Shown here in pieces: positions 4,994 through 50,298 of a stretch of DNA of 50,298 bases. The stretch is from the sequence record NC_041873.1; one strand, 5' to 3'. Both the position numbers and the translations under genes were made by a program. The stretch's first letter is position 1. Each line of letters begins with the position of its first letter. The notes beneath the pieces are model-generated. The model saw only the letters and a program-made list of their open reading frames with translations. It had not been told where the DNA came from and searched no databases. Source of the DNA: Escherichia phage JMPW2.

Positions 4994-5100
4994 GGAGAAA
5001 ACACTATGCCAGACTTTTCTAACTGGAATAACGAGCCGCCATCATTTCAGGAGTTGCTATTTTGCCTCCTGGTCCTGACATTATCTCTTAAGGGTGTTTT

Positions 5101-5319: not shown

Positions 5320-5352
5320 AACCTATCAAGGGGAATGCGCTATGATTCCCCT
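5303..5352 (+). promoter_or_regulatory. palindromic box plus stem-loop
   Basis: aatagcacgaattgctaaaac; hairpin aggggaat...attcccct with TATGAT. Confidence 0.6.
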
Positions 5353-5376
5353 ACACCAACAAACGAGGAAGCACGA

Positions 5377-5823: not shown

Positions 5824-5872
5824 TAGCACGAATTGCTAAAACTTGCTCAAGGGAATTTGTTAGAATGCCCTT
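5822..5872 (+). promoter_or_regulatory. palindromic box plus stem-loop
   Basis: aatagcacgaattgctaaaac; hairpin aaggg...ccctt with TGtTAGAAT. Confidence 0.6.
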
Positions 5873-5906
5873 CGTTGAGTTAAGCAACCAATCAGAGGAA
5901 TAAATC

Positions 5907-6437: not shown

Positions 6438-6918
6438 TAACAAATCAATGGTAAGAGAGTTATTTACTTATTCTGACGGCGTTCTGTATTGGAAGGCCAA
6501 ATCATCTAAATACAGTAGAGCTAAAATAGGAGGCGCGGCAGGAAGCAAGGATAAAGACGGATACATAATAATCAGAGTAAGAAACGAAACTAGAGGCGCT
6601 CACAGGCTTGTATGGATATACCATAATGGCAAGATACCTGATGGAATGGAGGTAGACCATATGGATGGAGACATAACAAACAATAGAATAGAAAACCTAA
6701 GATTGGTAACGAGAACCATAAATAACAGGAATCAAAAAAAGAGATCTGATAACACAACCGGAGTATCCGGTGTAACTTTCATGAAAGATAGAGGAAAGTA
6801 TAGGGCGCAAGTTAGAAACAAGAGACTCGGGCAGTTCGACACAATAGAAGAGGCCGCCAAAGCAGTAAAGGATGAGCGGGATAGATTAGGTTTATTCACA
6901 AAAAGACACGGGGTGTAA
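6424..6918 (+). CDS. HNH homing endonuclease with AP2-like domain
   Basis: Motif EVDHMDGDITNNRIENLRLVT plus TTGVSGVTFMKDRGKYRAQV; paralogous to 42263..42745 and 46320..46859. Confidence 0.8.
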   Translation: MVSIDNKSMVRELFTYSDGVLYWKAKSSKYSRAKIGGAAGSKDKDGYIIIRVRNETRGAHRLVWIYHNGKIPDGMEVDHMDGDITNNRIENLRLVTRTINNRNQKKRSDNTTGVSGVTFMKDRGKYRAQVRNKRLGQFDTIEEAAKAVKDERDRLGLFTKRHGV

Positions 6919-6920
6919 AC

Positions 6921-7493
6921 ATGAAAACAGCTATCATTTTAAACGGCGCACCTGGTGCGGGAAAGGACACTATCGGATGCATCCTGGCTGACACTTACGA
7001 TCACGTGGCGCTACGCAGCTTTAAGGCTCCGATGTTTGAGATTGCCCGAGCAATATTGGGTGAGGCTAATTTCGAATATTTCATGTTCTTGTATGAGGAC
7101 CGTCGCTATAAAGAAGAGCCAGCATCAATCCTGAACGGTAAAAGCCCGCGCCAGTTTATGATCTGGATTAGCGAGGAGGTCATCAAGCCGCAGTTCGGAA
7201 ATCGCTTCTTCGGTATGCGAGCGGAAAGCAAGGTGAAAGAGTCTCACTCCCTTTCGGTATTTACTGACGGTGGATTCAAAGACGAGATCTTGCAGATGAT
7301 TGAAGGTGATATCCAGGTAAAGCTATGTCGAATCCATCGCAACGGTTGCAACTTTGACAACGACAGCCGAGACTATATCTATCTTGACGATATGATCGGG
7401 GTCAACGGTTATCAGGAGTGCGACTTCTTTTCTGTCGAAGGCCATCCAGAAATTACCGCTCAGCACATAGCCGCCACGTTCATCAATAAATAG
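6921..7493 (+). CDS. P-loop kinase (T4 gp1-like dNMP kinase or polynucleotide kinase)
   Basis: Walker A GAPGAGKDT at N-terminus; LNGKSPRQ resembles T4 dNMP kinase. Confidence 0.6.
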   Translation: MKTAIILNGAPGAGKDTIGCILADTYDHVALRSFKAPMFEIARAILGEANFEYFMFLYEDRRYKEEPASILNGKSPRQFMIWISEEVIKPQFGNRFFGMRAESKVKESHSLSVFTDGGFKDEILQMIEGDIQVKLCRIHRNGCNFDNDSRDYIYLDDMIGVNGYQECDFFSVEGHPEITAQHIAATFINK

Positions 7494-7542
7494 CACGAAT
7501 TGCTAAAACGTCGATGGGGTGATTTGATATAGTTACCTCATC
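7489..7542 (+). promoter_or_regulatory. palindromic box plus stem-loop
   Basis: aatagcacgaattgctaaaac; hairpin gatggggt...acctcatc with TGaTATAGT. Confidence 0.6.
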
Positions 7543-7565
7543 GACAACGAAGAGAGAAAATCGAA

Positions 7566-7775
7566 ATGATGGTATCAACTGATAAGTTTTTCACCTGCAC
7601 TAAAACCTCTGAAGTATTCGAGCTTGTTCATACTGATAATGGTGATTTCATGCATGACGGTTGCGACGTTTTTATCGAAGTGAAAGAAAGCGACTATGAT
7701 GACGGAGTTTATTATAACCCGGCAGTGAACACTCAGTTCTTTACACCGATCGAAGAAGAAGGAGAAGAGGCATGA
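7566..7775 (+). CDS. hypothetical acidic protein
   Basis: Track ORF; module and SD upstream. Confidence 0.5.
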   Translation: MMVSTDKFFTCTKTSEVFELVHTDNGDFMHDGCDVFIEVKESDYDDGVYYNPAVNTQFFTPIEEEGEEA

Positions 7776-31235: not shown

Positions 31236-32350
31236 ATGTTCCAGGTGTTCACATCAAGTCAGCTTTCTAATGACGAGTATCATAGCAACGAAGGTTGGGC
31301 GGCAGAGTATGTAAGCGGTTCTAGCCTTGCAGAAATTTATCAGACTTGCCCGGCTAACTGGAGATTCAAGAAGAATGAGACAACGAAGGCGCTGGAGTTT
31401 GGTACTCAGTCGCATACCAACTTTGAGAGCCGAGATCTGTTTACTGCAACGTATGCACGTTGTCCGGCTCCGTCAGAGTTCAAGGATCTGATTACGTCAC
31501 AAGCCGCACTGGCTGCAAAATTAAAATCTTTCGGCCTGAAAGGTACATCCGGTAAGCAGTACCCGGACCTCATCAAGATGATGGTTGATTGCGGTGAAGA
31601 GCTAAACGTCCAATATCTGATCGAGTTGATTGCGGAAGCAGAGGCGCGCTCTGAAGGAAAGAAATTGGTTGACGCTGACAAATACGACGCTTGCATGAAG
31701 ATGAGAGCAATCCTTGAACAAAATCCTGATCACGAAGCGTGCATCAACAGTGAAACGGCGCAGCGTGAGATTTCAATCTTCGGTGAGATATCCGGCGTCA
31801 AGGTTAAGGTTCGACTTGACCATCTGGACTACAAAGAGAATGTTCCAGGTCGTGTCCTGACTGGTTATGATGAGAATGGAGATCCGGTATTCGAAGATGT
31901 TATTTTCCCTGAAGCACTGATGAGAATGGAGATCCGGTATTCGAAGATGTTATTTTCCCTGAAGCACTGATTATCACTGACTTCAAAACAACAATGAGCG
32001 CCAACCCGTTAGAGTTCCCGAGACTGGCATACAATCACGGGTATTATCTGAAAATGGCCTTGCAGCATGATCTGCTACGACGCGCAATCCAGGCTGGCGC
32101 TTTTGAAGGCAACTTCCCGGAATATATCCCGATCGTAGTTCGATTGCTGGCTCAGGAGAAAAAAGAGCCTTACATCGCACTTGCTTACCGTATGACTATG
32201 GAGCAAATCAGGATCGGTCGTAGCCAGTATGTTAGCGTAGTCCACACTTACAAGGCTTGCTCTGAAATGGATGTTTGGCCTGGGTACGCTGGCGACGCAA
32301 GCGAGATTGAACTTGAAACGCCATCATGGGTGCGTTACCAAAATAAGTAA
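31236..32350 (+). pseudogene. PD-(D/E)XK recombination exonuclease, frameshifted by 50-bp tandem duplication
   Basis: 31871..31920 and 31921..31970 are identical; removing one copy fuses ORFs 31236..31970 and 31994..32350 in frame and restores ...FPEALIITDFKTT... Confidence 0.6.
31871..31970 (+). repeat. perfect 50-bp direct tandem duplication (2 copies)
   Basis: tgagaatggagatccggtattcgaagatgttattttccctgaagcactga repeated exactly. Confidence 0.95.
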
Positions 32351-32424: not shown

Positions 32425-33072
32425 ATGCAATTATCACCAGAAACAAACGAAATTCTTCCCGCACTGTTCAATGCTCGCAACAAATTTGCTAAAGCAAAGA
32501 AGGACGCAAAAAACAATCACCTGAAAAATTCATACGCAACCCTTGATGCAATGATGGCGGCCGTTAGCCCGGCGCTCACCGATAACGATATTATGATCCT
32601 GCAATCAATGCTGGACACCAGCACGGAAACAACCTTCCATCTTGAAACGATGCTGATTCACAAATCCGGGCAATGGGCCAAGTTCTTCATGATGATGCCT
32701 ATTGCAAAGCGCGATCCTCAAGGTGTAGGCTCAGCGATGACGTATGCGCGGCGTTACTCATTAGCCGCAGCGCTGGGGATTAGCCAGAGTGATGACGATG
32801 CTCAGCTTGCAGTGAAATCTGTCAAGGACTGGAAAAAAGAACTTGATGCGTGTGAAGATATCGAATCACTGAAAGAGGTATGGGCTAACGCTTACCGCCA
32901 GACGGACACGGCAAGCAAGTCAATCATTCAGGATCACTACAACGCACTTAAGGCTAAGTTTGAGATCGGTAAAGCTCGTGGTATTCGCCCGGCGCAACCG
33001 GAGCAGAAAAAACAGGTTGAAGCAACGAGCGCGAAGCCTGTACAATCTCAATCAATCACCAACTTCGAATAA
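32425..33072 (+). CDS. erf: Erf-family single-strand annealing protein
   Basis: SAMTYARRYSLAAALGISQSDDDAQ resembles the P22 Erf block SSYARKYCLNGLFGIDDAKDAD; conserved leader upstream. Confidence 0.65.
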   Translation: MQLSPETNEILPALFNARNKFAKAKKDAKNNHLKNSYATLDAMMAAVSPALTDNDIMILQSMLDTSTETTFHLETMLIHKSGQWAKFFMMMPIAKRDPQGVGSAMTYARRYSLAAALGISQSDDDAQLAVKSVKDWKKELDACEDIESLKEVWANAYRQTDTASKSIIQDHYNALKAKFEIGKARGIRPAQPEQKKQVEATSAKPVQSQSITNFE

Positions 33073-33117
33073 TCATCAGGGAGGCTTCGGTCGCCCATAA
33101 ATTTTAGGAGAGAAATA

Positions 33118-33531
33118 ATGCATATTATCACTGGCGAGATCCGCAAAGAACCTAAGATTCTTGAACGTAACGGCGGCAATACTTATATCATCGAACTGGC
33201 AGAAAGCTATAAGCCTCGTGATGGCGATCGTGAATACACCAACTACACATTCTTTTTTAGCGACGGTGGAAAGCCTGGCCTTGCTGATTGGTATCGTGAA
33301 GCGTTTCAGGTGGGTCGGGTAATTTCAGTATCTTGCGAATCTCTGAAGATTTATTCACGCGAGCATAACGGAACGGTTTATAACTCTCTGCAAGCGGCAG
33401 ACTTCCCGAAGTTGGTATTTAGTCAACGAGGGCAAAGCAATCAACAACGAGCACCGCAGCAACAACAGCGAACGCAATCACAGCCACAGCCAAATCCTCA
33501 ATCAACTTTCGATGATGATATCCCGTTCTAA
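33118..33531 (+). CDS. ssb: single-stranded DNA-binding protein
   Basis: Gln/Pro-rich linker ending in the canonical SSB tail DDDIPF. Confidence 0.7.
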   Translation: MHIITGEIRKEPKILERNGGNTYIIELAESYKPRDGDREYTNYTFFFSDGGKPGLADWYREAFQVGRVISVSCESLKIYSREHNGTVYNSLQAADFPKLVFSQRGQSNQQRAPQQQQRTQSQPQPNPQSTFDDDIPF

Positions 33532-33560
33532 CAAAAATCCCCGCAATGCGGGGATTTTAT
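33531..33560. terminator. bidirectional terminator
   Basis: ccccgc aat gcgggg hairpin flanked by A run and T run between convergent genes. Confidence 0.65.
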
Positions 33561-35116
33561 CATTTGGACTTCAACATTTTTATCTCTTCTTGTAACTCTT
33601 CAACTTTCTTTATTGTATCCTGTAAAGCTCTCATAGTGTCAAGCAATAAAGGAGTTGTATCAAGCTCAAGCCTTTCAACTTTTGGCCCGTTTAGCTCGTG
33701 GCTCTCATACACCCTTCTCTTAACATATAGATTGTCGATCTCTTCTATCTCCTGAGCTATAACACCTCTCCTTACCCTTTCTTGCTCATCATCGTTAAAT
33801 ATAAAGTTCCTAAATCTCATTGATTTTATGTTGTTGTATGCAATGCTTGATTCATCATCCTTTATGCCGTGCTTTATATTTCTGTCAGATGCCGGAACCT
33901 GTTGGAAACTTCCAGCCCCTTGCGGTCCAGCGTAAGATATTTGCCCTGAAGCCATAAACCTGAAATGCATTTGCAGACCAATATTGCCTGCTCCATCCCT
34001 ATCTTGAGTGCCTACTGATATTTGTGCCCTGGGCCATTCAGGATTACCCGTAGTCATCATGCCAAATGCTACGCCGCCAACGTATCCCTGACCTCTGGTG
34101 TCACACGATCCAGCAATAAGTGATTGATAGTTTTCAGCACCACTATCAGCGGTGTAAGCATTACCCTGGAAGCATGAAGCAGACCACATCTGGTTGTAAC
34201 CCATAGATGTTTTCTGGCATAAAAACTGATTAGCTCTGAATCTATTGTTAGTCTCGAAGTAGTTTGCCCCCTCATAAAATAATAAAGCCCCAGCATAACC
34301 ATTATCGCTACGTTCTTTTCTGACGTAAATACCTGGCGTAGATATTCCATCAGGTGACATAATCATCAATGATGACAATATGGACTGACTACCCCAGCTA
34401 GAACCGTCCCATGAATTCCTTCCTGCACCTATAGCGCCAGTGGTGTTAATAGTAAGAAAGTTAACAGCATCATTTTCACCTAACCCAATATTTTTTCTTG
34501 ACTCTTTTTTATCCTCAAGACCAGCTAGATTGCCATCCTTAGTTAAAAGATTTTCAGCGTCAACGCTATTTGCTGCGTCCTTTGCTTCCTGCGCACTGAC
34601 TGCTGCTGCATCTTTTGCGCTAACCGCTGCATCGCGTGCAGCGTTGGCTGCGTCACGCGCTAATTCAGCCTGATTTTGCGCAGCTTGAGAATCAGATTTC
34701 GCCTGATTCACATCAGCAACTATTTGCTCAAGTTTATTCATATCAGCAACTATTTGCTCAAGTTTATTCATATCAAGCTGATTTATCAGGTCTATAGCTG
34801 CCGCAATCTCAGTCTCTTTGCTTTGATAGTATCGAAGAGTCTCGGCGACGTTTTGAGCTAATCCGTTAACGGTTAGAGAGTCATTAAGTAGGATCACATA
34901 CTTACCGTCATCGGCAGTCTGACCATCAGTAGAGATAGCCTTTAATTCTGTATCACTAACGATATCGCTAATCACAGCTAGCTTAATTGGTTGCTCAAGG
35001 AACACGATAGTTGCACCTACGCGAATAAGAGCAAGCTGGTCTTTCCATTTTGTATCGGTTCCGTGAACCGTTCCGTCTGCATCCATTGATGCAGTACCGC
35101 GTCGATATAAAGCCAT
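33560..35116 (-). CDS. tail fibre protein with C-terminal intramolecular chaperone-like domain
   Basis: Fibre-like N-terminus MALYRRGTASMDADGTVHGTDTKW; Ala/Gln coiled region; C-terminal coiled-coil ...LQDTIKKVEELQEEIKMLKSK. Confidence 0.7.
   Translation of the reverse strand: MALYRRGTASMDADGTVHGTDTKWKDQLALIRVGATIVFLEQPIKLAVISDIVSDTELKAISTDGQTADDGKYVILLNDSLTVNGLAQNVAETLRYYQSKETEIAAAIDLINQLDMNKLEQIVADMNKLEQIVADVNQAKSDSQAAQNQAELARDAANAARDAAVSAKDAAAVSAQEAKDAANSVDAENLLTKDGNLAGLEDKKESRKNIGLGENDAVNFLTINTTGAIGAGRNSWDGSSWGSQSILSSLMIMSPDGISTPGIYVRKERSDNGYAGALLFYEGANYFETNNRFRANQFLCQKTSMGYNQMWSASCFQGNAYTADSGAENYQSLIAGSCDTRGQGYVGGVAFGMMTTGNPEWPRAQISVGTQDRDGAGNIGLQMHFRFMASGQISYAGPQGAGSFQQVPASDRNIKHGIKDDESSIAYNNIKSMRFRNFIFNDDEQERVRRGVIAQEIEEIDNLYVKRRVYESHELNGPKVERLELDTTPLLLDTMRALQDTIKKVEELQEEIKMLKSK
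34712..34771 (-). repeat. perfect 30-bp in-frame tandem duplication inside tail fibre gene
   Basis: atcagcaactatttgctcaagtttattcat x2, encoding MNKLEQIVAD twice. Confidence 0.95.
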
Positions 35117-35135
35117 AATATAAACTCCTTAAGTA

Positions 35136-35155
35136 AATAGCACGAATTGCTAAAC
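35136..35155 (+). promoter_or_regulatory. palindromic box between primase and tail fibre genes
   Basis: aatagcacgaattgctaaac. Confidence 0.5.
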
Positions 35156-35192
35156 ACAGATTTTATCATCGCGCCATGAGTCTTGCAACGGG

Positions 35193-35218
35193 CAATAAAA
35201 AACCGCCCGAAGGCGGTT
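35193..35218 (-). terminator. rho-independent terminator after primase
   Basis: aaccgcccgaaggcggtt hairpin preceded by A run on + strand. Confidence 0.6.
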
Positions 35219-36152
35219 ATAGTAGATCACTTGCTGAGAATAACTTAGCTTGCATTCCTGAGCGGTATCCTCCCTGATTCGGGATGATTATTTTTAATTG
35301 TCTGTCGTCTGCCATGTATAAAGTTTCTTTATCAGATGGTTCGCACGCCACCCTTACCTCCCGATCTCCCTTGTATCTGTACGCAACCATTTCTAGATTT
35401 TCAGGAGTGAAGCAGGCCCATACCTCTTGCTTTGTGTGAAATGCAATATGCTGAGCATCAATCCAATTAAGGCATAAGTAGATCGCTTTTTCAGTTTTAC
35501 CAGTCACGGCAACCGAGCAACTTGTGTATTTCTTTGCATAAAATGACTCCCTACCCTCCTCATCAATAATCAAAATATTGCAAAACTCTTCATCAATACC
35601 GTCCTCGTGTACAAGTTGACATGGTATGGTGTGAAATACACTCTCGCCGCCATCCTCTCGACGTTTTACGCCAACGTCGAATGATTCAGTAGGTAGCGAC
35701 TCAAACATGCTTAGAGGTGTGTTTATGCGCTTCTCTGTGCGCTCCATAACTTTCATCACTGCCTCGTGTTCTGCCATCATAACGTTGACGCCAGCTACCG
35801 GAGTTCTTCGCGCTTTTTTGTTGGCCTTGACAATGTATTCCTGCGGAACCTTGCCGAGAAATCTTCCCAGGATATTTATACATTCGCTGTACGGCATACC
35901 AGTTAATTTCATCAACCAACCGACTCCAGAGTCGTTACCGCATGAGTTGCAGATCGCACCGCCGTCGCCCGGAGTGTTAAGGTTATCAGTCCAGCGAAAG
36001 CGGTCCTTACCCCCGCAGTTAGGGCAAGGTTGGTGTTTCTTATTAAAAACATCATTCGGCAATCCGCAGATTGATTGGAAAGCCTCGCGCCATAACCCCT
36101 TCATGTACGGCAAAACGTCCTCTTTCTGAAACATCATAAATTCTTCGTTCAC
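35217..36152 (-). CDS. DNA primase (zinc-ribbon type)
   Basis: CPNCGG...CNSCG zinc-binding pairs in N-terminal region; track start is GTG, ATG at 36137 also possible. Confidence 0.55.
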   Translation of the reverse strand: MNEEFMMFQKEDVLPYMKGLWREAFQSICGLPNDVFNKKHQPCPNCGGKDRFRWTDNLNTPGDGGAICNSCGNDSGVGWLMKLTGMPYSECINILGRFLGKVPQEYIVKANKKARRTPVAGVNVMMAEHEAVMKVMERTEKRINTPLSMFESLPTESFDVGVKRREDGGESVFHTIPCQLVHEDGIDEEFCNILIIDEEGRESFYAKKYTSCSVAVTGKTEKAIYLCLNWIDAQHIAFHTKQEVWACFTPENLEMVAYRYKGDREVRVACEPSDKETLYMADDRQLKIIIPNQGGYRSGMQAKLFSASDLL

Positions 36153-36164
36153 TTCCAGATCTCC

Positions 36165-36205
36165 AAAATAAAAAACGCGTAGAAGGATGTTAACCCGCTA
36201 CGCGT
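36165..36205 (-). terminator. rho-independent terminator after HTH gene
   Basis: acgcgtag...ctacgcgt stem with A-rich run on + strand. Confidence 0.5.
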
Positions 36206-41056: not shown

Positions 41057-42190
41057 ATGTCACAAGCTAAAATCACTACCGAGCAACTTATCGAAGAGCG
41101 CATGAGCGGCCTGACACTTCGCGAGATCGCGGAAAAGTACGGTATGCACATTCGCACTGTCGAGGCGCGTCACGCAAAACTTGCAAAAGAAGGCCACTTC
41201 CACGGCAACGAGCATGTTGCTAAGATGGTTCCGGAAGGCTTCATGGTAAAAGGCACGTCAACCATGATTGACGCGGAAGGTAACGAGAAGATTCGTTGGG
41301 TTAAGACATCAGTTGATAATGAGCGCCTTGAGGTTCTAATGGAAAAAGCGCGTGAAGCATTCTGTTCAGAGTTGCCTAAGGCTATTCCATCTGAATCACC
41401 TGACGTTAGTTTTGATGAAGACACGCTTGCGATGTATCCAGTTTTTGATTTGCACATTGGTGCTCTTGCTCACAAACATGAGTGCGGCGAAAACTACGAC
41501 ACAGCGACAGCAGAGAAGGTTATGAATGGGTTCTTTGACTACGCTGTAGATAAGGCGCCAAACTCAAAGAATGCCGTATTGGTATTGGGTGGCGATTTCC
41601 TACATTACGACTCTTTGGAGTCTAAGACTCCAGCGTCAGGCCATTACTTAGATTCTGACAGTCGTTACGCTAAGCTTGTTTATGTCGCAATCCGATCAGT
41701 ACGACGCGCAGTCTCTCGAATGCTGGAGAAGCACCAAGTTATTGATATTAAAGCAATAAGTGGGAATCACGACGAATCAGGGATGGTTTGGTTGCGCGCT
41801 GCGCTTGCTGCATTTTATGAAGATGAGCCGCGCGTAAATGTTGATGTTAGCCCTGCCGCAATGATGATGACCAGCTTTGGTAAGACCCTTATTGGATACA
41901 CTCACGGGCATCAAATGCGAAAAGCAGATACTCGACTAAGTGTTATGGCAACTGATTTTCGTAAGTTGTTTGGTCAAAGTGATTACGTTTACACGCATAG
42001 CGGTCACTGGCACAGTCAAAAGATTACAGAAACAAACTTGGGTATTGATGAGGTTCATGGTCAGCTTGGAAGTCCTGACGCATACTCTGCCAATGGCGGT
42101 TGGAGGTCTCAGCGTCAAGCTGCTGTGATTGTCTATCACAAGGAATTTGGTGAGGTTGGACGATTCATTTGTCGACCTGAAATGTTCTAA
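41057..42190 (+). CDS. HTH domain fused to calcineurin-like metallophosphoesterase
   Basis: N-terminal LTLREIAEKYGMHIRTVEAR; phosphoesterase motifs DLHIG, GGDFLH, GNHDE, HSGHWH. Confidence 0.7.
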   Translation: MSQAKITTEQLIEERMSGLTLREIAEKYGMHIRTVEARHAKLAKEGHFHGNEHVAKMVPEGFMVKGTSTMIDAEGNEKIRWVKTSVDNERLEVLMEKAREAFCSELPKAIPSESPDVSFDEDTLAMYPVFDLHIGALAHKHECGENYDTATAEKVMNGFFDYAVDKAPNSKNAVLVLGGDFLHYDSLESKTPASGHYLDSDSRYAKLVYVAIRSVRRAVSRMLEKHQVIDIKAISGNHDESGMVWLRAALAAFYEDEPRVNVDVSPAAMMMTSFGKTLIGYTHGHQMRKADTRLSVMATDFRKLFGQSDYVYTHSGHWHSQKITETNLGIDEVHGQLGSPDAYSANGGWRSQRQAAVIVYHKEFGEVGRFICRPEMF

Positions 42191-42230
42191 ATAGCACCTT
42201 TTGTTAAAACAGTACCCGCGAAAGCGGGTA
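42189..42230 (+). promoter_or_regulatory. palindromic box plus stem-loop
   Basis: aaatagcaccttttgttaaaac; hairpin tacccgcg...cgcgggta then TATTAT. Confidence 0.55.
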
Positions 42231-42262
42231 TTATTGTTTTATAGAAACAAGAGGAGATTGCA

Positions 42263-42745
42263 ATGAACTGGCACGAGCATTACGAATATAGGGATGGTGT
42301 TCTATATCACAAGGTAAAGCCATGCAGAAGGCATGATGTAAATATTGGGGATGTTGCTGGAAGGGTTGCCAAAAACGGCTATCACTATGTTGTTCACAAG
42401 AACAGGCCGTATAAGAGATCTCGAGTTATATGGGAGATGTTTAATGGTGAGATACCAGATGGTTTTGTTATAGATCATCTGAATCACAATGCCACCGATG
42501 ATAGGATCGATAACCTTGAGTGTAAGCCAAGAAGAGAGAATATGGTTAATGTTAAGTTAAGGATTGATAGCACGACCGGAGTAACTGGCGTATCAAGAAA
42601 GAGGGATAACAAGTGGAGGGCGTACATAACAATTATGGGTAAGCAGAAGTGCAAGAGCTTTGACACGTTTGAGGAAGCTTGCGCGCAGAGGATTGAATGG
42701 TCAGTAACTCATGATTTTCACCCAAATCACGGTGGAACATACTAA
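42263..42745 (+). CDS. HNH homing endonuclease with AP2-like domain
   Basis: DHLNHNATDDRIDNLECKPRRENMVN plus TTGVTGVSRKRDNKWRAYI. Confidence 0.8.
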   Translation: MNWHEHYEYRDGVLYHKVKPCRRHDVNIGDVAGRVAKNGYHYVVHKNRPYKRSRVIWEMFNGEIPDGFVIDHLNHNATDDRIDNLECKPRRENMVNVKLRIDSTTGVTGVSRKRDNKWRAYITIMGKQKCKSFDTFEEACAQRIEWSVTHDFHPNHGGTY

Positions 42746-42790
42746 TAGCACCTTTTACCTAACCCGCGCCACAGAAGTGCGGCATAGTAA
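42744..42790 (+). promoter_or_regulatory. box variant plus stem-loop
   Basis: aatagcaccttttacctaac; GC stem then CATAGT. Confidence 0.4.
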
Positions 42791-42817
42791 CCACATCGAA
42801 AACAGAGATGCTATATC

Positions 42818-42994
42818 ATGAAGATAGTCAAGTGCATCCGAAATGACTCCAAAACACTTCCATTCCGTGTAAATCAGATCTATAGTGTTGGTTATGATTT
42901 CGGTGGGGGATTATTTGAGATTTACGACGGGCGAGGTTCAGCAATCCAGACTCCTCTGAACGGTCACTACCTGGAATTTATTGAGATAGATTAA
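42818..42994 (+). CDS. small-beta-domain family protein (58 aa)
   Basis: Hand-translated MKIVKCIRNDSKTLPFRVNQIYSVGYDFGGGLFEIYDGRGSAIQ...; below track cutoff. Confidence 0.45.
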   Translation: MKIVKCIRNDSKTLPFRVNQIYSVGYDFGGGLFEIYDGRGSAIQTPLNGHYLEFIEID

Positions 42995-43112
42995 CAATAG
43001 CATTCATCACCTTACAGGCTGGCATGATTTACATGCTGGCCTTTTTGCGTTGTGTCAAATAAATTTGAAGGTTAAAATCGACTCACTTGTTCAAAAAATA
43101 TATGGTGAGATT

Positions 43113-43328
43113 ATGAAAGAGTTTTTAACGGCTGCTACGTCAAGCACTGGCGGTGCTTCGTTGGTAGGGGCGGCGACAGGGCAACTTTATATTGCTGGCG
43201 CTACATTCATTTGCTTTCTGCTTTTTGGTGCCTGGGGAGCGTACTGGAAGTATCGTGATAGCAAGGCAATTCAGGAAGCGTTAAACGATGGCGATCTAAA
43301 TAAGGCGCTTAAGATCAGGGGGAGATAA
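43113..43328 (+). CDS. holin
   Basis: About 71 aa with hydrophobic segments and charged C-terminus, directly upstream of endolysin. Confidence 0.55.
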
Positions 43329-43816
43329 TGAGTTTAAAAAATAACGTTATAGGCGCATCAATCGGGGCCGCTTTGACGTTGACACCTACCCTACTGGAAC
43401 GGATCGAAGGTATAGAATACGAGGTTTATTACGATATCGCCGGAGTCCCTACCGTATGCAGCGGAATAACCGGGCCTGACGTCATACCTGGTAAGAAATA
43501 CACTAAGCGAGAATGCGATGCATTGCTGATAAAACATATCGGCGTCGCTCAGCGATACGTTGACAAGAAGGTTAAGGTTGACATTCCGGTAACTATGCGC
43601 GCATCACTGTATAGCTTCACTTTCAACGTTGGGACTGGCGCTTTCGGATCGTCTACAATGCTTAAGCTAATCAATCAGCGCAAGCACAAAGAAGCGTGTA
43701 ATCAGTTATGGCGATGGGTATACTACTACAACCCAAAAACCAAAAAGCGCGAAGTGTCGAGAGGGATCAAGAATCGGCGCGCTGAAGAATACGCATATTG
43801 CGTTAAGGAACTATAA
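43328..43816 (+). CDS. SAR endolysin (GH24 lysozyme)
   Basis: Signal-anchor-like [17 protein letters not shown]; catalytic spacing E-x8-D-x5-T ([16 protein letters not shown]). Confidence 0.75.
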
Positions 43817-44217
43817 TGAAACTTAAGAAAACGTGCATTGCAATTACGGTTGCTGTTGGTGTGATTTCTCTATCCGGTTGTTCGACGGCATCTGCTCTGA
43901 GTGGTTTACTTTCTGACTCCCCGGATGTTACGGCGCAGGTTGGCGCTGAGAACACAAAACAACTAGCAGGAGTAACAGCAAAGGCGGATGATAAGCGAGA
44001 AGTGAAGGTGAGTGATTCAAATATTGGCAAGATTGACTCATCCGTCAAGAAGTCCGTGGAGGTGTCAACCATTCAGGCCAACACGGTTAACGCTGAAAGC
44101 ATCACAGTAACCAAATCTGGAAGCTGGTACGATCCTGTGGTTTGCTGGATTCTAGTTTTTATTGTCCTGTTGCTGTTTTATTTTTTAATTCGTAAGCACG
44201 AAAAAAAGGAGGCGTAA
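43816..44217 (+). CDS. unimolecular spanin (lipoprotein signal plus C-terminal TM)
   Basis: N-terminal lipobox LSGC and C-terminal helix VVCWILVFIVLLLFYFLI, the T1 gp11 architecture. Confidence 0.65.
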   Translation: MKLKKTCIAITVAVGVISLSGCSTASALSGLLSDSPDVTAQVGAENTKQLAGVTAKADDKREVKVSDSNIGKIDSSVKKSVEVSTIQANTVNAESITVTKSGSWYDPVVCWILVFIVLLLFYFLIRKHEKKEA

Positions 44218-44230
44218 GCCTCCTTTCTTA
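44200..44230. terminator. bidirectional terminator
   Basis: aggaggc gtaa gcctcct hairpin flanked by A7 and T-rich runs. Confidence 0.6.
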
Positions 44231-44339
44231 TTTGTACCTTTTGACGTGAAGTAGCAACTCCCCATCCTGATCGCAAAGATTGTGCTCACCGTCGTTATTG
44301 GCCCTCATCGAAGTGAGCAGTAGGCTAAGTAATCCTTGC

Positions 44340-44747
44340 TCAAATTCTTCTTTCGTAAGCTGGAGCCTTGCGCACAATTCGACGTTCCGATCTATCAATG
44401 TTTCTACGTTCGCCAAACAAGTCTTCATCACTCATTTCTCCAATGTGCATCATTTCCCACGTATATCGATTGTTGTAGCCATCAATACACATCAGCTTCA
44501 TCATTACCGGGCGCTTGATCTTTCCCTTGCACCAGTAAAATCCACCCTTGCAATCAAGATAACCCTCAGTCACGCAGCGTGCGCAAAACTCCTTAGACAG
44601 CGCGCTTGTAAATTCACGGCGAGTCATTCCGGCGGCCTTAGCAAATCGCTCACTTTCCTTGTGGGCGTATATAAATTTCGCTATGTGCTGTCGAGTGTAT
44701 TTGTCGTAACCTTCGCAGAACCTGAACAGATCTAAAAGAAGAAGCAT
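44340..44747 (-). CDS. hypothetical protein
   Basis: Track ORF; ends 112 nt before terminator, with a second open frame (44228..44431) continuing to it. Confidence 0.45.
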   Translation of the reverse strand: MLLLLDLFRFCEGYDKYTRQHIAKFIYAHKESERFAKAAGMTRREFTSALSKEFCARCVTEGYLDCKGGFYWCKGKIKRPVMMKLMCIDGYNNRYTWEMMHIGEMSDEDLFGERRNIDRSERRIVRKAPAYERRI

Positions 44748-44751
44748 ATTA

Positions 44752-46320
44752 TTAACCCATCAGTCGAGGATTGATGAAAACAATATCATCAATCCGGCAA
44801 GTGTAGTTCATCTCTTCGAGCGTGATCAGCAGGCTGTCGATTCGCTCAGCTACTTTTTGTTGACCGTTGAACGGCGTAACGTTACGGCACTTTGCAACAA
44901 TGCTATGAATAGGTGCGCGACCTTTGTTCTTCTTTGCGATCTCAGTGATAACATCAATCAGCTTACGAGATTCAGCCTCATCACCAGCATACCCGGCGGC
45001 GCTGGCAGACGACAGATAGGTTCTGGAAAGCTCATTGAAAATCATGATCGCTTCCTGCATTGTTTCAAGGTCAATCTCACGGTTGGAACGGTTCGGTGAT
45101 TCACCATCCCAGTTCTTGATTGTGTGAAGAACTGAAGCAATGCGCAAAGCGTGCTTATCGAACTTGCCGAGATGACCGCGTAGCATTGAGTGAGAGTATT
45201 TGCCCCCGGCTGCGAAATCCGGCTCCATAGCCTGGCGAGCAAGGTTTAATTCACGCATAGCATTACGGCTTACAGAGAGAACAACGTTGTCCTCCTTCAT
45301 AATGTTGTGCACAAGTCGATAATATTTACTCACCAATCCTCGATCGACTTCCTTATACAGTGCATCACCATTTTCATCGCAAAGAATACGAGTGCCTAAA
45401 AGAGGTTCCTCGCGAACCAATAGGAAACGCTCAGATACACCGATACCGCGCTGGCCTGCGTCCATGATACCCTTGATTGTTTCATCCTGCGCAATGACGC
45501 AGATCGAACCGACCGGGCAAAGAGATAAGTTATTGTCCTGATTTGAACGCGCAACCTCCATATGGTTTTTATCCCACGCCTTGAGGATAAGCTCGCTGTT
45601 TGATTTCTTATCAGAACCGCCATAAGTCAGGCCAAGCAATGTATTTATTGCCGTTGCCTCATCAGAGATTACGGAAAAGTGGCCTTGAACAGCAGCTACT
45701 TTCGCAAGACCTTCCGGTGTAGGATCTGATACCGCGAAAACAATATCAGCCATCTTCTTGATCTTCTCTTCCAGTTTTTCCTTGTCCTCGTACAGCGCCG
45801 CCGTCGTGTTACCCTTCGGATCGTTTTTGATTTCCTTCTCGATCTGACGTAGCTGACTGGTTAAACGGATACGTTCCTTTTTGCGCTCTTCATTCAGTCT
45901 CTGAATCTCTGCGCGCATAGGTGTAATCGCCGCTGAGTTAATCGCGGATTTACCTGTTGATGGTGGCTGGCTAATCACCATATAAAGAGCGGTCGGTTGT
46001 TCTTCTCCGTGATATTGCACCCAAAACTTCCCTAGCATCGCGGCTGAGATGCACCCAATGAAATGAGCGTACGCAGACGAAACAGGAAACTGTACAGACT
46101 CAGCTTTTGCTTTTGCATATTCGAATACCAGGTTATCGCCACCTAACGAAATCAGCGGGAACTTATCGTTTCCACTGTTGATATCGATCGGGTCTTGCCA
46201 AAACGAAACTGAATCCCCGTAGCTGTTTTCACGAATTGCGATCGCCACCGGATTAACTCCAGTGCTATTTGCGATCTCAATAATCTGTTGGTAATTCAGT
46301 TTTGGCTTAATATTAAACAT
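44752..46320 (-). CDS. P-loop NTPase (DUF3987-like, replication-associated)
   Basis: Walker A-like PPSTGKS; start at internal ATG (MFNIKP) with SD aaggag. Confidence 0.55.
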   Translation of the reverse strand: MFNIKPKLNYQQIIEIANSTGVNPVAIAIRENSYGDSVSFWQDPIDINSGNDKFPLISLGGDNLVFEYAKAKAESVQFPVSSAYAHFIGCISAAMLGKFWVQYHGEEQPTALYMVISQPPSTGKSAINSAAITPMRAEIQRLNEERKKERIRLTSQLRQIEKEIKNDPKGNTTAALYEDKEKLEEKIKKMADIVFAVSDPTPEGLAKVAAVQGHFSVISDEATAINTLLGLTYGGSDKKSNSELILKAWDKNHMEVARSNQDNNLSLCPVGSICVIAQDETIKGIMDAGQRGIGVSERFLLVREEPLLGTRILCDENGDALYKEVDRGLVSKYYRLVHNIMKEDNVVLSVSRNAMRELNLARQAMEPDFAAGGKYSHSMLRGHLGKFDKHALRIASVLHTIKNWDGESPNRSNREIDLETMQEAIMIFNELSRTYLSSASAAGYAGDEAESRKLIDVITEIAKKNKGRAPIHSIVAKCRNVTPFNGQQKVAERIDSLLITLEEMNYTCRIDDIVFINPRLMG

Positions 46321-46859
46321 CACAATAAACTCCTTAGTTGACGGCGTGAATGATACACCGTCAATGGTACACGCGTTTTGCAAAAAGTGCTATTCGATCC
46401 GTGATTCTCATGAAAACCGTATAGCCTTTCCGCTTCCTTCCTTGCTTTAGCCGCTGCATCCAGCGTCATGAAGGTCCCTAAGTGTTTTGTCTTTTTATTT
46501 ATGGTTATGTTTGCCGTGTATCTATTTGTTTTTTTATTCCAATACACTCCCATAACTCCTGTGTTTGATGACACTACTCCCTTGTTTCTTAGGTTGTCTT
46601 GCCTAGTTACTAGCCTGAGATTCTCAATTCTGTTATCGTCTCTTTCATGGTTTATGTGGTCTACATCCATTCCTTCTGGTATGTTTCCGTAGTGTATTTT
46701 CCATACTATTCGATGGGCGTATTCAAATACACCTCCTGGAAAACATATTGACCGATAACCTTTTTTATTAACAGTTCCGGCAAGTAGATTTCGTCTTCTT
46801 CCGATTCTCCACTCTTTCCAGTACAGTCTCCCGCTAACGTATTTCAGTTCATCTTTCAT
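46320..46859 (-). CDS. HNH homing endonuclease with AP2-like domain
   Basis: DVDHINHERDDNRIENLRLVTRQDN plus SNTGVMGVYWNKKTNRYTA; third paralog. Confidence 0.75.
   Translation of the reverse strand: MKDELKYVSGRLYWKEWRIGRRRNLLAGTVNKKGYRSICFPGGVFEYAHRIVWKIHYGNIPEGMDVDHINHERDDNRIENLRLVTRQDNLRNKGVVSSNTGVMGVYWNKKTNRYTANITINKKTKHLGTFMTLDAAAKARKEAERLYGFHENHGSNSTFCKTRVPLTVYHSRRQLRSLL
46339..46393 (-). promoter_or_regulatory. palindromic box plus stem-loop (minus strand)
   Basis: Minus-strand atagcactttttgcaaaac, hairpin gacggtg...cgccgtc with TGTATCAT, SD taaggag. Confidence 0.55.
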
Positions 46860-47272
46860 AAGTATTTACTCTCAAAGGTTGTGCCGTCTGCGATACTAAA
46901 ACCAACCTCTTCGCGGAATAAGGTCCAGCGGCAACCGTCCTCATCAAAGATGTAACCAGCTACGCCTCCAAGAGCGCGACCGCTTTCTACCTGGTAACGC
47001 TTTCCAACCTTGAATGATTTTTTCATTGGGTTGCGATGGTCAAGTCCGGTGCACTTGAGCGTCTTTGTTTTCAACTCGGTGAACTTCGCGAAGAAGATTT
47101 CATCAGATCCGTGAATATGTAATTCATCATGCTTTTCAAGTTTTAAATACTTCCCGCATTTTAACTTTACTTCACGAGTATCATCATAGCGCTCACGACC
47201 TTTATACAGATTGTTTACTTCGAATCCTGTGATTTTGTCTGCTGAAGTGCATTTAAGTTTAATGGTTTTCAT
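46856..47272 (-). CDS. small-beta-domain family protein (two repeats)
   Basis: KLKCTSADKITGFEVNNLYKG and KTLKCTGLDHRNPMKKSFKVGKRYQV repeats. Confidence 0.5.
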   Translation of the reverse strand: MKTIKLKCTSADKITGFEVNNLYKGRERYDDTREVKLKCGKYLKLEKHDELHIHGSDEIFFAKFTELKTKTLKCTGLDHRNPMKKSFKVGKRYQVESGRALGGVAGYIFDEDGCRWTLFREEVGFSIADGTTFESKYL

Positions 47273-47302
47273 TGCGTTCGCTCCTGATTGGTTATCTTGA
47301 AT

Positions 47303-47352
47303 AAGGTCACTTTATCAAATGACCTTACGGCAATATTAACAAATCGTGCTAT
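47303..47352 (-). promoter_or_regulatory. palindromic box plus stem-loop (minus strand)
   Basis: Minus-strand atagcacgatttgttaa, hairpin aaggtca...tgacctt with TGaTAAAGT, ACCAATCAGGAG leader. Confidence 0.55.
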
Positions 47353-47562
47353 TTACCAGGGAATATAATCATCAATGTCCTCATTGATATCATCACCAGG
47401 TAACTTAAAGTTAGGATCATATTCGCTTTCAGCATCAATATCCATATCACCAATAGCCTCATCAAGTGTTATTTCTTTATATGCGACCTTGATGCACCAC
47501 TCGGCACTAAGCCCGACATCAAGTGCTGCAAAATAACGAGTCCAGAAATTATCTTGTTCCAT
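47353..47562 (-). CDS. hypothetical highly acidic small protein
   Basis: Track ORF; many D/E residues. Confidence 0.5.
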   Translation of the reverse strand: MEQDNFWTRYFAALDVGLSAEWCIKVAYKEITLDEAIGDMDIDAESEYDPNFKLPGDDINEDIDDYIPW

Positions 47563-47565
47563 TAA

Positions 47566-47790
47566 TTAGCTCCACGAATTAATGTAAATCGAGTTAGCCT
47601 CAAGCGTTGCACGAACGTCCGCATCTGTTGCATTTATCAGTCGAGAGCCTGGCACGCTTCCGATAACACTATTTCCGTTACGTGTCTTAGTTACCGTCAT
47701 TGAAATAAAGCCTGAAGACTTATCCATTTTCACAACTACACGGCCTTTTGCGTTCAAGTGCTTGATGATATTCTCAACTTTAATGCTCAT
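47566..47790 (-). CDS. hypothetical protein
   Basis: Track ORF; module and SD upstream on minus strand. Confidence 0.5.
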   Translation of the reverse strand: MSIKVENIIKHLNAKGRVVVKMDKSSGFISMTVTKTRNGNSVIGSVPGSRLINATDADVRATLEANSIYINSWS

Positions 47791-47816
47791 TTTAATTCCT
47801 TTGTTTCGTTTGGTGT

Positions 47817-47867
47817 GGGAGTAATATACCTCACTCCCTGGTGTGTGTCTTTAGCAATTTGTGCTAT
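47817..47867 (-). promoter_or_regulatory. palindromic box plus stem-loop (minus strand)
   Basis: Minus-strand atagcacaaattgctaaag, hairpin gggagt...actccc with TATATT. Confidence 0.55.
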
Positions 47868-47878
47868 CAGTACTCAGA

Positions 47879-48010
47879 AATTACTTTGCACTCTTTGATT
47901 GTTCCTCCTAGCACTGATTTCTGCATCATTGCTTTTTGGCGACTATCGTAAACGCGAACATTTTTTACGCTATTAAACTTGCCTGTATAAAAGGTGTGAA
48001 CATAAATCAT
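47879..48010 (-). CDS. hypothetical small protein (43 aa)
   Basis: Hand-translated MIYVHTFYTGKFNSVKNVRVYDSRQKAMMQKSVLGGTIKECKV; below track cutoff. Confidence 0.3.
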
Positions 48011-48327
48011 TTTTTACCGTCCCATGTTTGATATGCCGTAACCAGGTTAATGCTATGGTCGAACTCGTCAACGCTAAGCGATCCAATTCGAACAAGCTCC
48101 TTGTTGTGCTTAATGTCAATCATCAGGCTGTATGGATGACCTGGCACGTATTTAAATAGACGCTTGCTGTCGGCAATGTCTGCGTTGATTCCGTAGAATC
48201 GGCCTACTGCCGCCTTAACGCGCTCCATGATGTTTTTTTCGTGGATTGCCGCCGCGTTATTCAGTGCCGCAACCGTGCTTCCGTTAATCTTCGGTGACTT
48301 CGTTGTGATTTTGTAAGTGTGGTTCAT
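48007..48327 (-). CDS. hypothetical protein
   Basis: Internal ATG (MNHTYK) of track ORF 48007..48393 with SD ggggg. Confidence 0.5.
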   Translation of the reverse strand: MNHTYKITTKSPKINGSTVAALNNAAAIHEKNIMERVKAAVGRFYGINADIADSKRLFKYVPGHPYSLMIDIKHNKELVRIGSLSVDEFDHSINLVTAYQTWDGKK

Positions 48328-48343
48328 TATTCCCCCTAACCAG

Positions 48344-48544
48344 TCAGGATAGCTTTCGAGCTTCATCAACGATAACAGGCTCAAGGCGTTCAAGTCGAAC
48401 GCGGAACGTGTTCATAAATCCATCGTTATTCTTCAATAACTCGAAAGCGTCCGTAGCTTCAATGGCGCTACTACCCATGTAAGAGATCACGCGCTTCTGT
48501 GTCTTTCGTGAGATCGCCACCACTCGGTAAATGTTATCGCTCAT
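48344..48544 (-). CDS. hypothetical protein
   Basis: Internal ATG (MSDNIYR) of track ORF 48344..48628. Confidence 0.45.
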   Translation of the reverse strand: MSDNIYRVVAISRKTQKRVISYMGSSAIEATDAFELLKNNDGFMNTFRVRLERLEPVIVDEARKLS

Positions 48545-48905
48545 ACAATGCCTCCTTAACACGGTCCGCAATGCAGGAGTTGACGGTGATTGAATAGTTA
48601 GCCACGCCCCACAATGCGACGTTTCCAAGCTCGGTACGCATAGATGGGTTATTTAGCTGGATGATTGTCTCGCCAGTATCGTTATCGACGAAACGAGATG
48701 CGCCAGAACGGTCCACCACGCGCGTTACGCGGTTAACACACTCCATTGCATCACTTACACCGTAATAAGAGCTTAGAGCGGCTCTCACGGCTTTCTCTTG
48801 CTTGTTGTAAATCTTTCGCGCGATGTTCTCGATCGCAACGCGCTCTTTTTCGTCAGTCTGTATTGCCGTGCTTGCTGAGAAGTCCAGGTCAGTGAGCTGC
48901 TTAAA
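48534..48905 (-). CDS. hypothetical protein
   Basis: Internal ATG (MFKQLT) with SD acgaggaaag; module upstream. Confidence 0.5.
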   Translation of the reverse strand, partial: FKQLTDLDFSASTAIQTDEKERVAIENIARKIYNKQEKAVRAALSSYYGVSDAMECVNRVTRVVDRSGASRFVDNDTGETIIQLNNPSMRTELGNVALWGVANYSITVNSCIADRVKEALYER

Positions 48906-48930
48906 CATGATTCTTTCCTCGTTTGCTGTT

Positions 48931-48982
48931 GATGTGATGACTATACCAGCCACCCCGGGTGCGCGCTTAACAAAAGTGCTAT
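48931..48982 (-). promoter_or_regulatory. palindromic box plus -10-like element (minus strand)
   Basis: Minus-strand atagcacttttgttaa then TGgTATAGT. Confidence 0.5.
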
Positions 48983-49168
48983 TTAGAATTTTACATCTTC
49001 AACAAGCTCGACAAATTTGTACCCCAGGCGATAGGAGTCGCCGAACAACAATAACCCCATAAATTCATCTTTGGTTATCGACTCCTTACCAACTGTTCTA
49101 AGCTCTCCGTTGTGAATAACAGTATCGCCGATCTTGATTTCTGATTTATGCACTAATTTCGTTTTCAT
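48983..49168 (-). CDS. hypothetical small protein
   Basis: Track ORF; weak RBS. Confidence 0.4.
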   Translation of the reverse strand: MKTKLVHKSEIKIGDTVIHNGELRTVGKESITKDEFMGLLLFGDSYRLGYKFVELVEDVKF

Positions 49169-49183
49169 TTGTTAGCCAGTTAA

Positions 49184-49369
49184 TTAAAAGAATGCTACAT
49201 AGTTTGCAATGCCTTTTGCGTCGTCGTTAGGCATCGCATTGACAGCCGGGTCGTAACCCGCTTCTACCTTCTGCTTTGCAGATTCTTCGTTGTATCCCCA
49301 AATAACCAGGATTTTAACTACGTTTTCTTTGTTCAGGACTTTAAGGTCTTTAGTGATGCGACGTGCCAT
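49184..49369 (-). CDS. hypothetical small protein
   Basis: Internal ATG (MARRITK) with SD gaggaaaaa; module upstream. Confidence 0.45.
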   Translation of the reverse strand: MARRITKDLKVLNKENVVKILVIWGYNEESAKQKVEAGYDPAVNAMPNDDAKGIANYVAFF

Positions 49370-49390
49370 TTTGTTTTTCCTCAATCTCGT

Positions 49391-49446
49391 TTCGATGAGG
49401 TAATTATGCCAAATCACGCAGATCGAGTTTTAACAAAAAATGCTAT
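49391..49446 (-). promoter_or_regulatory. palindromic box plus stem-loop (minus strand)
   Basis: Minus-strand atagcattttttgttaaaac then gatttggcataattacctcatcg. Confidence 0.5.
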
Positions 49447-49447
49447 T

Positions 49448-50134
49448 TTAGATAGCTTTAAAAAATCCCCTGGGTGATAGAGATCGTATCAGCTTCGTTT
49501 TGGCAGACTTGCCGCCCAGCTTGTTTTGCTGTGCAGAGTACCCGTCAGGCAGGCTTACAGGTTTTCTCTCGGGCATGACAAAATCGTCAGAGGTCCACAG
49601 ACAAGTTTTCTTCGGGTAAGCATCGCGCGGCGCAATATACATCGGGAACCAGGGGTGCGCGTCATCCTCAGGAAGATAGCCGCCGTACTCCCAGGGATTG
49701 AAGGAGTGATTTGGTTTTCTCCACGCAGACGACAGGACGCTCACCGGATTCTCAATGATGTAAGTCACACCAAGCTCCTTACCAATGTTCGCAGCTATCC
49801 GAGCGGTGGCAACAGCCTTCTCCTGGAATAACGGATCACGTTCACGCTTACTGGCAAAGTGACGAGCACCACTAACAGCCAGGTCAGTGCATGGAGGGAA
49901 AGCCATAATAAAATCCGGCTTGCCATACACACCCGCGATCGCGTCACGTTCGAACTTCTCATCAATAAAGACGTTCACATACTCAATGTTCGGATGCTCC
50001 ACCCTGGCGTTGTACTTTGCATAATCTCCGTGATCGGCCCCGTCAAAGTTGAAGCACATCACCTTATGACCTTGCTTTGCCAGTTCATGACCAGCAAGAC
50101 CGGAACCGTCGAATAGTGACCAAATTAACTTCAT
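49448..50134 (-). CDS. C5-cytosine DNA methyltransferase (Dcm-like)
   Basis: Motif I LFDGSG, motif IV FPPCTDLAVSG, ENP(V)-type motif YIIENPVS; conserved leader upstream. Confidence 0.7.
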   Translation of the reverse strand: MKLIWSLFDGSGLAGHELAKQGHKVMCFNFDGADHGDYAKYNARVEHPNIEYVNVFIDEKFERDAIAGVYGKPDFIMAFPPCTDLAVSGARHFASKRERDPLFQEKAVATARIAANIGKELGVTYIIENPVSVLSSAWRKPNHSFNPWEYGGYLPEDDAHPWFPMYIAPRDAYPKKTCLWTSDDFVMPERKPVSLPDGYSAQQNKLGGKSAKTKLIRSLSPRGFFKAI

Positions 50135-50152
50135 TGCTGCTTCCTCTTCTGA

Positions 50153-50213
50153 TTGGTTGATGGCCAGAACCATACCCCGACAACCTGATCGAGTCGTTAG
50201 CAAAAAATGCTAT
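50153..50213 (-). promoter_or_regulatory. palindromic box plus leader upstream of dcm-like gene
   Basis: Minus-strand atagcattttttgctaac then CAACCAATCAGAAGAGGAAG and ATG 50134. Confidence 0.5.
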
Positions 50214-50298
50214 TCCAATAATTGCTCATTATTCCATCAATATCGGAATAGGTGGAATAATTCTGATTGCGATTGATTGCAAATGATGAAACGTGATT

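Follow-up and report, generated by a model that had tools for sequence, protein, structure and literature searches.

A tail fibre gene that lies among replication genes and is read from the strand opposite to the tail module raises the question of why it stands there, and of which part of it is exchanged between phages. We address this question for Escherichia phage JMPW2 (sequence record NC_041873.1), the whole 50,298-nucleotide sequence of which is called the window below, and in which an open reading frame (ORF) at 33560..35116 on the minus strand sits between the ssb gene and the DNA primase gene. In a T1-like coliphage such as this one, the ORF is the ordinary lateral tail fibre gene, which has been described before. 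Taking the reading as a whole, we hold with high confidence that it forms a single-gene unit, that it encodes a lateral fibre of four modules, and that the tip and chaperone of this fibre are exchanged by recombination. Much of the background is already known, as the product is a tail fibre in GenBank, the S74 domain was listed for the orthologue in phage Sfin-1 in 2019, and the family-wide ssb-primase locus was described in 2021. The discovery value is consequently small, and the practical value lies in the host-range engineering of T1-like phages.

Identity and position of the gene

The gene and its two immediate neighbours are as follows.

33560..35116, minus strand: lateral tail fibre gene, an ATG-started ORF of 518 amino acids (aa) encoding a 56.6 kDa precursor
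33118..33531, plus strand: ssb gene, the conserved left flank (PHROG 44, E 1e-22), collinear in relatives
35217..36152, minus strand: DNA primase gene, the conserved right flank (PHROG 510, E 5.6e-109), collinear in relatives

A match to PHROG 1980 ('tail fiber protein') over aa 14-518, with an E value of 1.3e-101, marks the ORF as a real gene and not a chance ORF, and its N-terminus also matches a dozen further tail-fibre PHROGs. The gene is 100% identical to that for gp53 of phage SH2, annotated 'tail fiber protein', and belongs to a stretch (33000-36200) that is 100% identical to both vB_EcoS_SH2 (Drexlerviridae, Tunavirinae, Tunavirus) and vB_Henu5_2 and 90-97% identical to many T1-like phages of E. 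coli and Shigella. JMPW2 is itself a Tunavirus, a T1-like member of the Drexlerviridae.

A preliminary description of this DNA, made from the sequence alone, had placed a leftward-transcribed gene with a fibre-like N-terminus between ssb and primase, on the opposite strand and 4 kb from the tail module. The ORF and the PHROG matches confirm its neighbours and direction, and the N-terminus proves to be the conserved fibre anchor of the Drexlerviridae. The strand is opposite to that of ssb and the tail module, but it is shared with the upstream primase and regulator genes, a leftward block from 36666 to 33560 comprising regulator, primase and fibre, in which the fibre gene is the last unit and is predicted to be separately promoted. 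The distance also needs refinement, as the final plus-strand gene of the tail module ends at 30458, which leaves 3.1 kb to the stop codon of the fibre gene and 4.7 kb to its start codon.

A single-gene transcription unit

The following elements flank the gene.

33535..33558, both strands: bidirectional terminator hairpin between the convergent ssb and fibre genes, AAAATCCCCGC-AAT-GCGGGGATTTT (folding, conserved position)
35125..35130, minus strand: ribosome-binding site AAGGAG, 8 nucleotides upstream of the ATG (read from the sequence, conserved in the alignment)
35160..35188, minus strand: predicted sigma-70-type promoter-like site, TTGCAA and TAAAAT with a 17-nucleotide spacer and a TG before the second hexamer
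35201..35218, minus strand: primase terminator hairpin, AACCGCC-TTCG-GGCGGTT followed by TTTTTT (terminator scan, folding, kept in 8 phages)

The gene had been described as bracketed by hairpin terminators, and both hairpins are present near the coordinates given for them. For the downstream hairpin (33535-33558) the folding energy is about -18 kcal/mol on each strand, with z values of -4.7 and -5.2 and with 0/200 shuffles folding as well; flanked by A runs before it and T runs after it, it can terminate both the convergent ssb and fibre genes, and the T1 record carries annotated terminators on both strands at the homologous site. The upstream hairpin (35201-35218) is weaker when judged by folding alone (z -2.5). 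Since it overlaps the primase stop codon we assign it as the primase terminator, and in this position it would insulate the fibre gene from primase read-through. An inverted-repeat search with seed 9 recovered neither hairpin, and folding confirmed both. In alignments, relatives from four genera have both hairpins in the same place, with diverging stem sequences in the distant ones; at the downstream site, CLB_P3 and IsaakIselin keep the position with different stems.

Upstream of the gene, the promoter-like site was found by a consensus scan with 9/12 matches plus the TG, and a conserved leader lies between it and the AAGGAG and fibre ATG. The promoter-like site, the leader, the Shine-Dalgarno (SD) sequence and the terminators are nearly invariant in six Tunavirus/Nouzillyvirus genomes, while IsaakIselin and PeterMerian have equivalent elements of other sequence in the same places. 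An Rfam scan of the whole window gave no match, and so no RNA element in or beside the fibre gene. It is likely that the fibre gene is transcribed as a unit of its own, for which the primase terminator and a dedicated sigma-70-type promoter would form the upstream boundary and the bidirectional terminator shared with ssb the downstream one.

Modules of the fibre protein

Four modules, together with two smaller features within them, can be recognised.

34805..35116, minus strand: aa 1-104, the N-terminal anchor, which presumably fastens the fibre to the virion (conservation across Drexlerviridae fibres)
34559..34804, minus strand: alanine-rich coiled-coil shaft, aa 105-186 (alignments; weak Alanine_zipper match in Pfam at aa 128-186)
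34706..34775, minus strand: 30-bp tandem duplication of 2.3 copies with 97% match (TRF), giving MNKLEQIVAD twice in the shaft
33890..34558, minus strand: aa 187-409, the distal tip and presumed receptor-binding part
33563..33889, minus strand: Peptidase_S74 intramolecular chaperone (IMC), aa 410-518, 13.0 kDa, with a C-terminal helix (Pfam PF13884)
33872..33889, minus strand: codons of Ser410-Asp-Arg-Asn-Ile-Lys415, with the putative catalytic Ser/Lys pair (conservation and LtfA alignment)

The anchor contains about 50 invariant columns within aa 1-101 in an alignment of 9 Drexlerviridae fibres from 5 genera, the RAD2 depolymerase among them. It belongs to the conserved backbone and not to the exchangeable part, and presumably fixes the fibre to the tail. 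In DpK2 of phage RAD2 (7LZJ) the homologous region, the first 190 residues, appeared only as an 'extended triple helical bundle' that was left unmodelled (PMC8552709), and there is consequently no atomic structure of the anchor. Residues 105-186 would then form a trimeric coiled-coil shaft, alanine-rich and variable in length.

At the other end of the protein, a C-terminal region resembling the self-cleaving chaperone of endosialidase-type fibres had been suspected, and this suspicion is well supported. PF13884 matches aa 410-460 with positions 1-52 of its 58-position profile, at E 3.3e-8 and 34.1 bits (curated cut-off 22 bits), and the domain lies at the extreme C-terminus (aa 410-518 of 518). 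S74 domains carry their catalytic Ser at the domain start and a Lys five residues downstream, as in endoNF and T5 pb1. In the JMPW2 fibre S410, D411 and K415 are invariant across an alignment of 16 homologues with identity down to 32%, and S410 and K415 align with the Ser and Lys of DT57C LtfA, residues 937-1075 of which (8hqz_d) match fibre aa 388-518 with an E value of 1.6e-10. By analogy with endoNF and T5 pb1, the S74 domain would serve as a template on which the trimeric tip folds and would afterwards use the Ser410/Lys415 pair to cleave itself off before Ser410, so that the 56.6 kDa precursor would yield a mature fibre of 43.6 kDa and a released chaperone of 13.0 kDa (predicted masses).

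The tip between these regions (aa 190-409) was found in 44 of 50,697 phage records, comprising 29 Tunavirus records (80-100% identity) and 15 siphoviruses of about 44 kb (33-57%), the latter including Bas83-85, Gluttony, Lust, Pride and jat; a search of 5.8 billion proteins gave no more than 15 clusters, which makes this a narrow family. Residues 132-516 of the fibre share 57% identity over 392 aa with the fibre of Bas83 (Dhillonvirus), the N-termini being unrelated, and in Bas83 the tail-tip gene is followed after a short distance by the fibre gene, which is on the plus strand. The lateral fibres of Bas83-85 target O16 and are sensitive to GtrABS O-antigen glucosylation (BASEL completion paper). 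This homology supports a probable glycan-binding role for the JMPW2 tip. Extending from T5-like and BASEL work, residues ~187-409 would bind a surface glycan, either O-antigen or lipopolysaccharide (LPS), in a reversible and facultative manner during primary adsorption, and irreversible binding would use a separate receptor-binding locus downstream of the gpJ homologue. The orthologue in Sfin-1, CDS61, was listed with pfam13884 and detected by LC-MS/MS at 10% coverage in a phage preparation (PMC6714547).

Several points weigh against this picture of the fibre. According to the literature, what T1-type lateral fibres do 'has never been directly demonstrated' (PMC8594841; PMC13164509), and the cleavage, the trimerisation and the receptor of the JMPW2 fibre are inferred. 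The Sfin-1 preparation also held primase and helicase (PMC6714547), and the detection of CDS61 therefore lends virion incorporation weak support, and the specificity of the JMPW2 tip cannot be read off from 57% identity to O16-targeting tips. Furthermore, an AlphaFold2 model of aa 190-518, computed for a monomer of a putative intertwined trimer from a shallow 16-sequence alignment, reached a mean pLDDT of 43 and a pTM of 0.27 and leaves the folds structurally unconfirmed, its sole moderately confident part being the C-terminal helix (fragment residues 300-328, pLDDT 61-78). As this model is unusable, what is said of the tip and IMC folds is based on sequence evidence and on multimer models published for relatives.

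Shaft length and integrity of the gene

The same tip occurs on three shaft lengths, the 594-, 518- and 501-aa forms, which differ by in-frame deletions at short ARD-encoding repeats. The 594-aa form was verified in pSf-2, Sfin-1 and LHE71 and is indicated for other Shigella phages by their match spans. The 518-aa form of JMPW2, SH2 and Henu5_2 has an 86-aa deletion relative to Sfin-1, with its junction at an AARD repeat near nucleotide 34630, together with the 30-bp tandem duplication; the duplicated MNKLEQIVAD is not present in Sfin-1, FCWL1, Eco_BIFF or T1 in protein alignments. The 501-aa form, in FCWL1, Eco_BIFF and phiD2-2, has a different junction, between AEL and ARD. Short forms are carried by phages isolated on rough E. 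coli laboratory strains (5/5), whereas long forms are found in 13 Shigella phages and 1 E. coli phage, an association (Fisher p = 5e-4, uncorrected for relatedness) to be read as a lead only, given that the phages are related and that the 518-aa form could be the source of the 501-aa one. Shaft length might be an adaptive variable through which the reach of the fibre is tuned to the presence of an O-antigen layer, and this we consider rather doubtful.

The same alleles could be seen in another light, with the S74 domain as a non-cleaving remnant and the fibre as a largely dispensable part in decay, the phage being maintained on rough laboratory E. coli. On rough strains, lateral fibres are facultative (PMC8594841), the JMPW2 allele combines a shortened shaft with a tandem duplication, and short-shaft alleles occur only in phages from E. 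coli laboratory hosts. Decay of this kind is nevertheless improbable: the ORF is intact, the Ser/Asp/Lys motif is invariant, all of the length changes are in frame, and the tip is 90-100% conserved among 28 Tunavirus records.

The exchanged part of the locus

Having established the modules, we compared the window between 31000 and 39000 with relatives by BLASTN to locate the breakpoints of homology.

T1: left homology ends at 33558 (89.8%); island 34490-34648 (81%); right homology resumes at 34803 (93%)
IME167: left homology ends at 33558; island 34491-34639; right homology resumes at 34630
CLB_P3: left homology ends at 33537; island 34526-34642; right homology resumes at 34747

The left breakpoint is the ssb/fibre terminator hairpin, and the right breakpoints lie inside the gene, past the anchor, between 34630 and 34803. 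Across the tip region, from 33559 to about 34490, BLASTN found no homology to T1, IME167 or CLB_P3. Moreover, 33559-34802 is the sole stretch within 4566-48947 that lacks a T1 match and is replaced by unrelated sequence, T1 carrying 1907 bp (32661-34567) in place of the 1244 bp of JMPW2. Sfin-1 is collinear across the entire fibre gene at 90%, except for one indel near 34630-34642.

The conserved island, which corresponds to aa 157-209 and ends in ...AARDAAVSAKDAAAVSAQEAKDAANSVDAENLLTKDGNLAGL, is where the shaft ends. Judged by DNA homology, the exchangeable segment begins near nucleotide 34490 (aa ~209), directly past the conserved NLLTKDGNLAGL motif, and the part that is truly replaced is the tip and IMC, at about 33560-34490. 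An NLxxLxDKxxSRKNLGLG-like junction motif recurs in unrelated aligned fibres and in Bas83, and similar motifs are common junction points in phage fibres. In this model, host-range variation would arise by homologous recombination replacing the tip together with its chaperone, the necessary homology being offered by the conserved anchor and shaft on one side and by the end of ssb with its terminator on the other. It is speculative, but a location next to the phage's own exo, erf and ssb genes might favour such exchange.

These boundaries bear directly on the earlier proposal of an exchangeable host-range cassette with mosaic boundaries at the terminators, in which the whole gene, terminator to terminator, would be independently mobile. 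The proposal holds insofar as the locus is mosaic between related phages and hypervariable within the family, hairpins stand on both sides of the gene, and the left homology break coincides with the downstream hairpin. It fails on the right, where the breaks are internal to the gene in T1 (34803), CLB_P3 (34747) and IME167 (34630), and the upstream terminator, promoter-like site, SD sequence and first ~104 codons stay with the conserved backbone at 86-93% identity, the N-terminal domain being near-invariant across the family. We rejected the whole-gene unit on account of these internal breakpoints, which contradict it for the phages compared, and regard it as very improbable.

For the host-range engineering of T1-like phages, exchange of the tip and chaperone suggests a swappable segment at ~33560-34490, between the ssb terminator and the conserved shaft motif, with the anchor, promoter and upstream terminator best left untouched.

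The C-terminal module varies among relatives, S74 behind unrelated tips being present in six of nine fibre-locus proteins. Fibre-locus proteins of Sfin-1, IME167, CLB_P3, IsaakIselin and PH1062 end in S74 behind unrelated tips, the T1 fibre ends in Phage_tail_C_2 (PF25670), and the RAD2 protein has neither S74 nor Phage_tail_C_2. In PeterMerian (2753-3448) the S74 chaperone is a separate gene of 231 aa downstream of the fibre gene, at 22.6 bits against the 22-bit Pfam cut-off, in what looks like a naturally split form of this chaperone.

Gene order in related phages

The isolation of the fibre gene from the tail module had been read as a sign of an exchangeable cassette. It is not peculiar to this phage and is the fixed gene order of T1-type Drexlerviridae: exo-erf-ssb on the plus strand, then fibre-primase-regulator on the minus strand, then helicase on the plus strand is common to the eight T1-type phages compared, which represent four genera (SH2, Sfin-1, IME167, CLB_P3 and T1 of Tunavirus, IsaakIselin of Henuseptimavirus, PeterMerian of Warwickvirus and PH1062 of Nouzillyvirus). 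Maffei et al. 2021 (PLoS Biol, PMC8594841, S1C Fig) had already reported a hypervariable lateral tail fibre locus between the recombination and the primase/helicase genes of Drexlerviridae, of which only the 5' end is conserved.

A different arrangement is seen in RAD2, a Klebsiella phage of the genus Webervirus, in which the tail-tip gene on the plus strand is followed on the minus strand by fibre, ssb, erf, exo and primase. The fibre gene there adjoins the tail-tip gene, and the recombination block is inverted and on the other side of the fibre gene relative to T1-type phages (RAD2 1-7600). What makes the fibre gene of T1-type phages look embedded is thus the position of the recombination block, between the tail module and the fibre gene; the fibre gene itself need not have moved.

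Comparison with known fibres and depolymerases

Compared with the Drexlerviridae locus represented by T1 ST26, SH2 gp53 and Sfin-1 CDS61, the JMPW2 gene shows no categorical difference, sharing both the position between ssb and primase and the N-terminal anchor. CDS61 is ~97% identical to the JMPW2 fibre outside the shaft indel; the JMPW2 shaft is 86 aa shorter and has the 10-aa duplication. The T1 protein differs in its tip and carries Phage_tail_C_2 in place of S74.

Beyond the family, the L-shaped fibre of T5 and DT57C (pb1/LtfA), a siphovirus side fibre for facultative O-antigen binding (PMC8594841), likewise ends in an S74 IMC, with Ser and Lys aligned. Only the IMC and some 20 residues preceding it resemble DT57C LtfA in sequence; the anchor is unrelated, and the protein is 1076 aa long against 518 aa in JMPW2. 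The lateral fibres of Bas83-85 are closer, with 57% identity across the distal shaft, tip and IMC, and published descriptions give them a coiled coil, a T5-like tip and an IMC; the T5-like tip is reported for the Bas85 fibre only, which is 55% identical to that of JMPW2. Their N-terminal anchor is unrelated and of another phage group, and their gene is on the strand of the tail-tip gene. The chaperone of K1F endoNF, founder of Peptidase S74, has the same PF13884 domain in the same C-terminal place on a trimeric tail appendage, with no detectable similarity outside the chaperone, and the JMPW2 fibre has no sialidase domain.

The equivalent Drexlerviridae side appendage in RAD2 is DpK2 (PDB 7LZJ), which has a homologous anchor and helical bundle (E 3e-40). 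It is a beta-helix depolymerase without S74, and its gene adjoins the tail-tip gene, with ssb-erf-exo on the other side. Although fibre aa 1-176 are similar to depolymerases of Klebsiella phages (7vyv, 7vz3 and 7lzj, E ~5e-41; residues 1-173 in 7vyv/7lzj), an enzymatic tailspike or depolymerase like DpK2 in place of a binding fibre is the least probable reading and was rejected, as the similarity to 7lzj stops at the anchor and helical bundle, the Pfam search gave no beta-helix or enzymatic domain, the distal part amounts to just ~220 aa before the IMC, and the closest characterised tip relatives are described as T5-like fibre tips.

Mosaicism elsewhere in the genome

The best matches of window 25300-50298 are Henu5_2 (96.9%), SH2 (96.5%) and T1 (94.9%). 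The JMPW2 genome as a whole is mosaic, with 6918-41269 being SH2-like at ~98.7%, and 1-6900 and 41270-50298 only 80-91% similar to SH2 and mostly ~95% to T1. Within the latter, 41270-42780 is missing from SH2 and present in T1 (the region of the T1 HNH endonuclease ST15), and 48948-50191 is missing from T1 and present in SH2 (methyltransferase region).

A further observation concerns the recombination genes to the left of ssb, where a perfect 50-bp tandem duplication (31868-31971, 2.1 copies, 100% match) lies inside the RecE-like exonuclease VIII gene. The duplication shifts the frame and splits the gene into ORFs at 31236..31970 and 31994..32350, and could be either a real inactivating mutation or an assembly artefact; in SH2, T1, Sfin-1, IME167 and CLB_P3 the exonuclease VIII gene is intact as a single ORF of 1065 bp.

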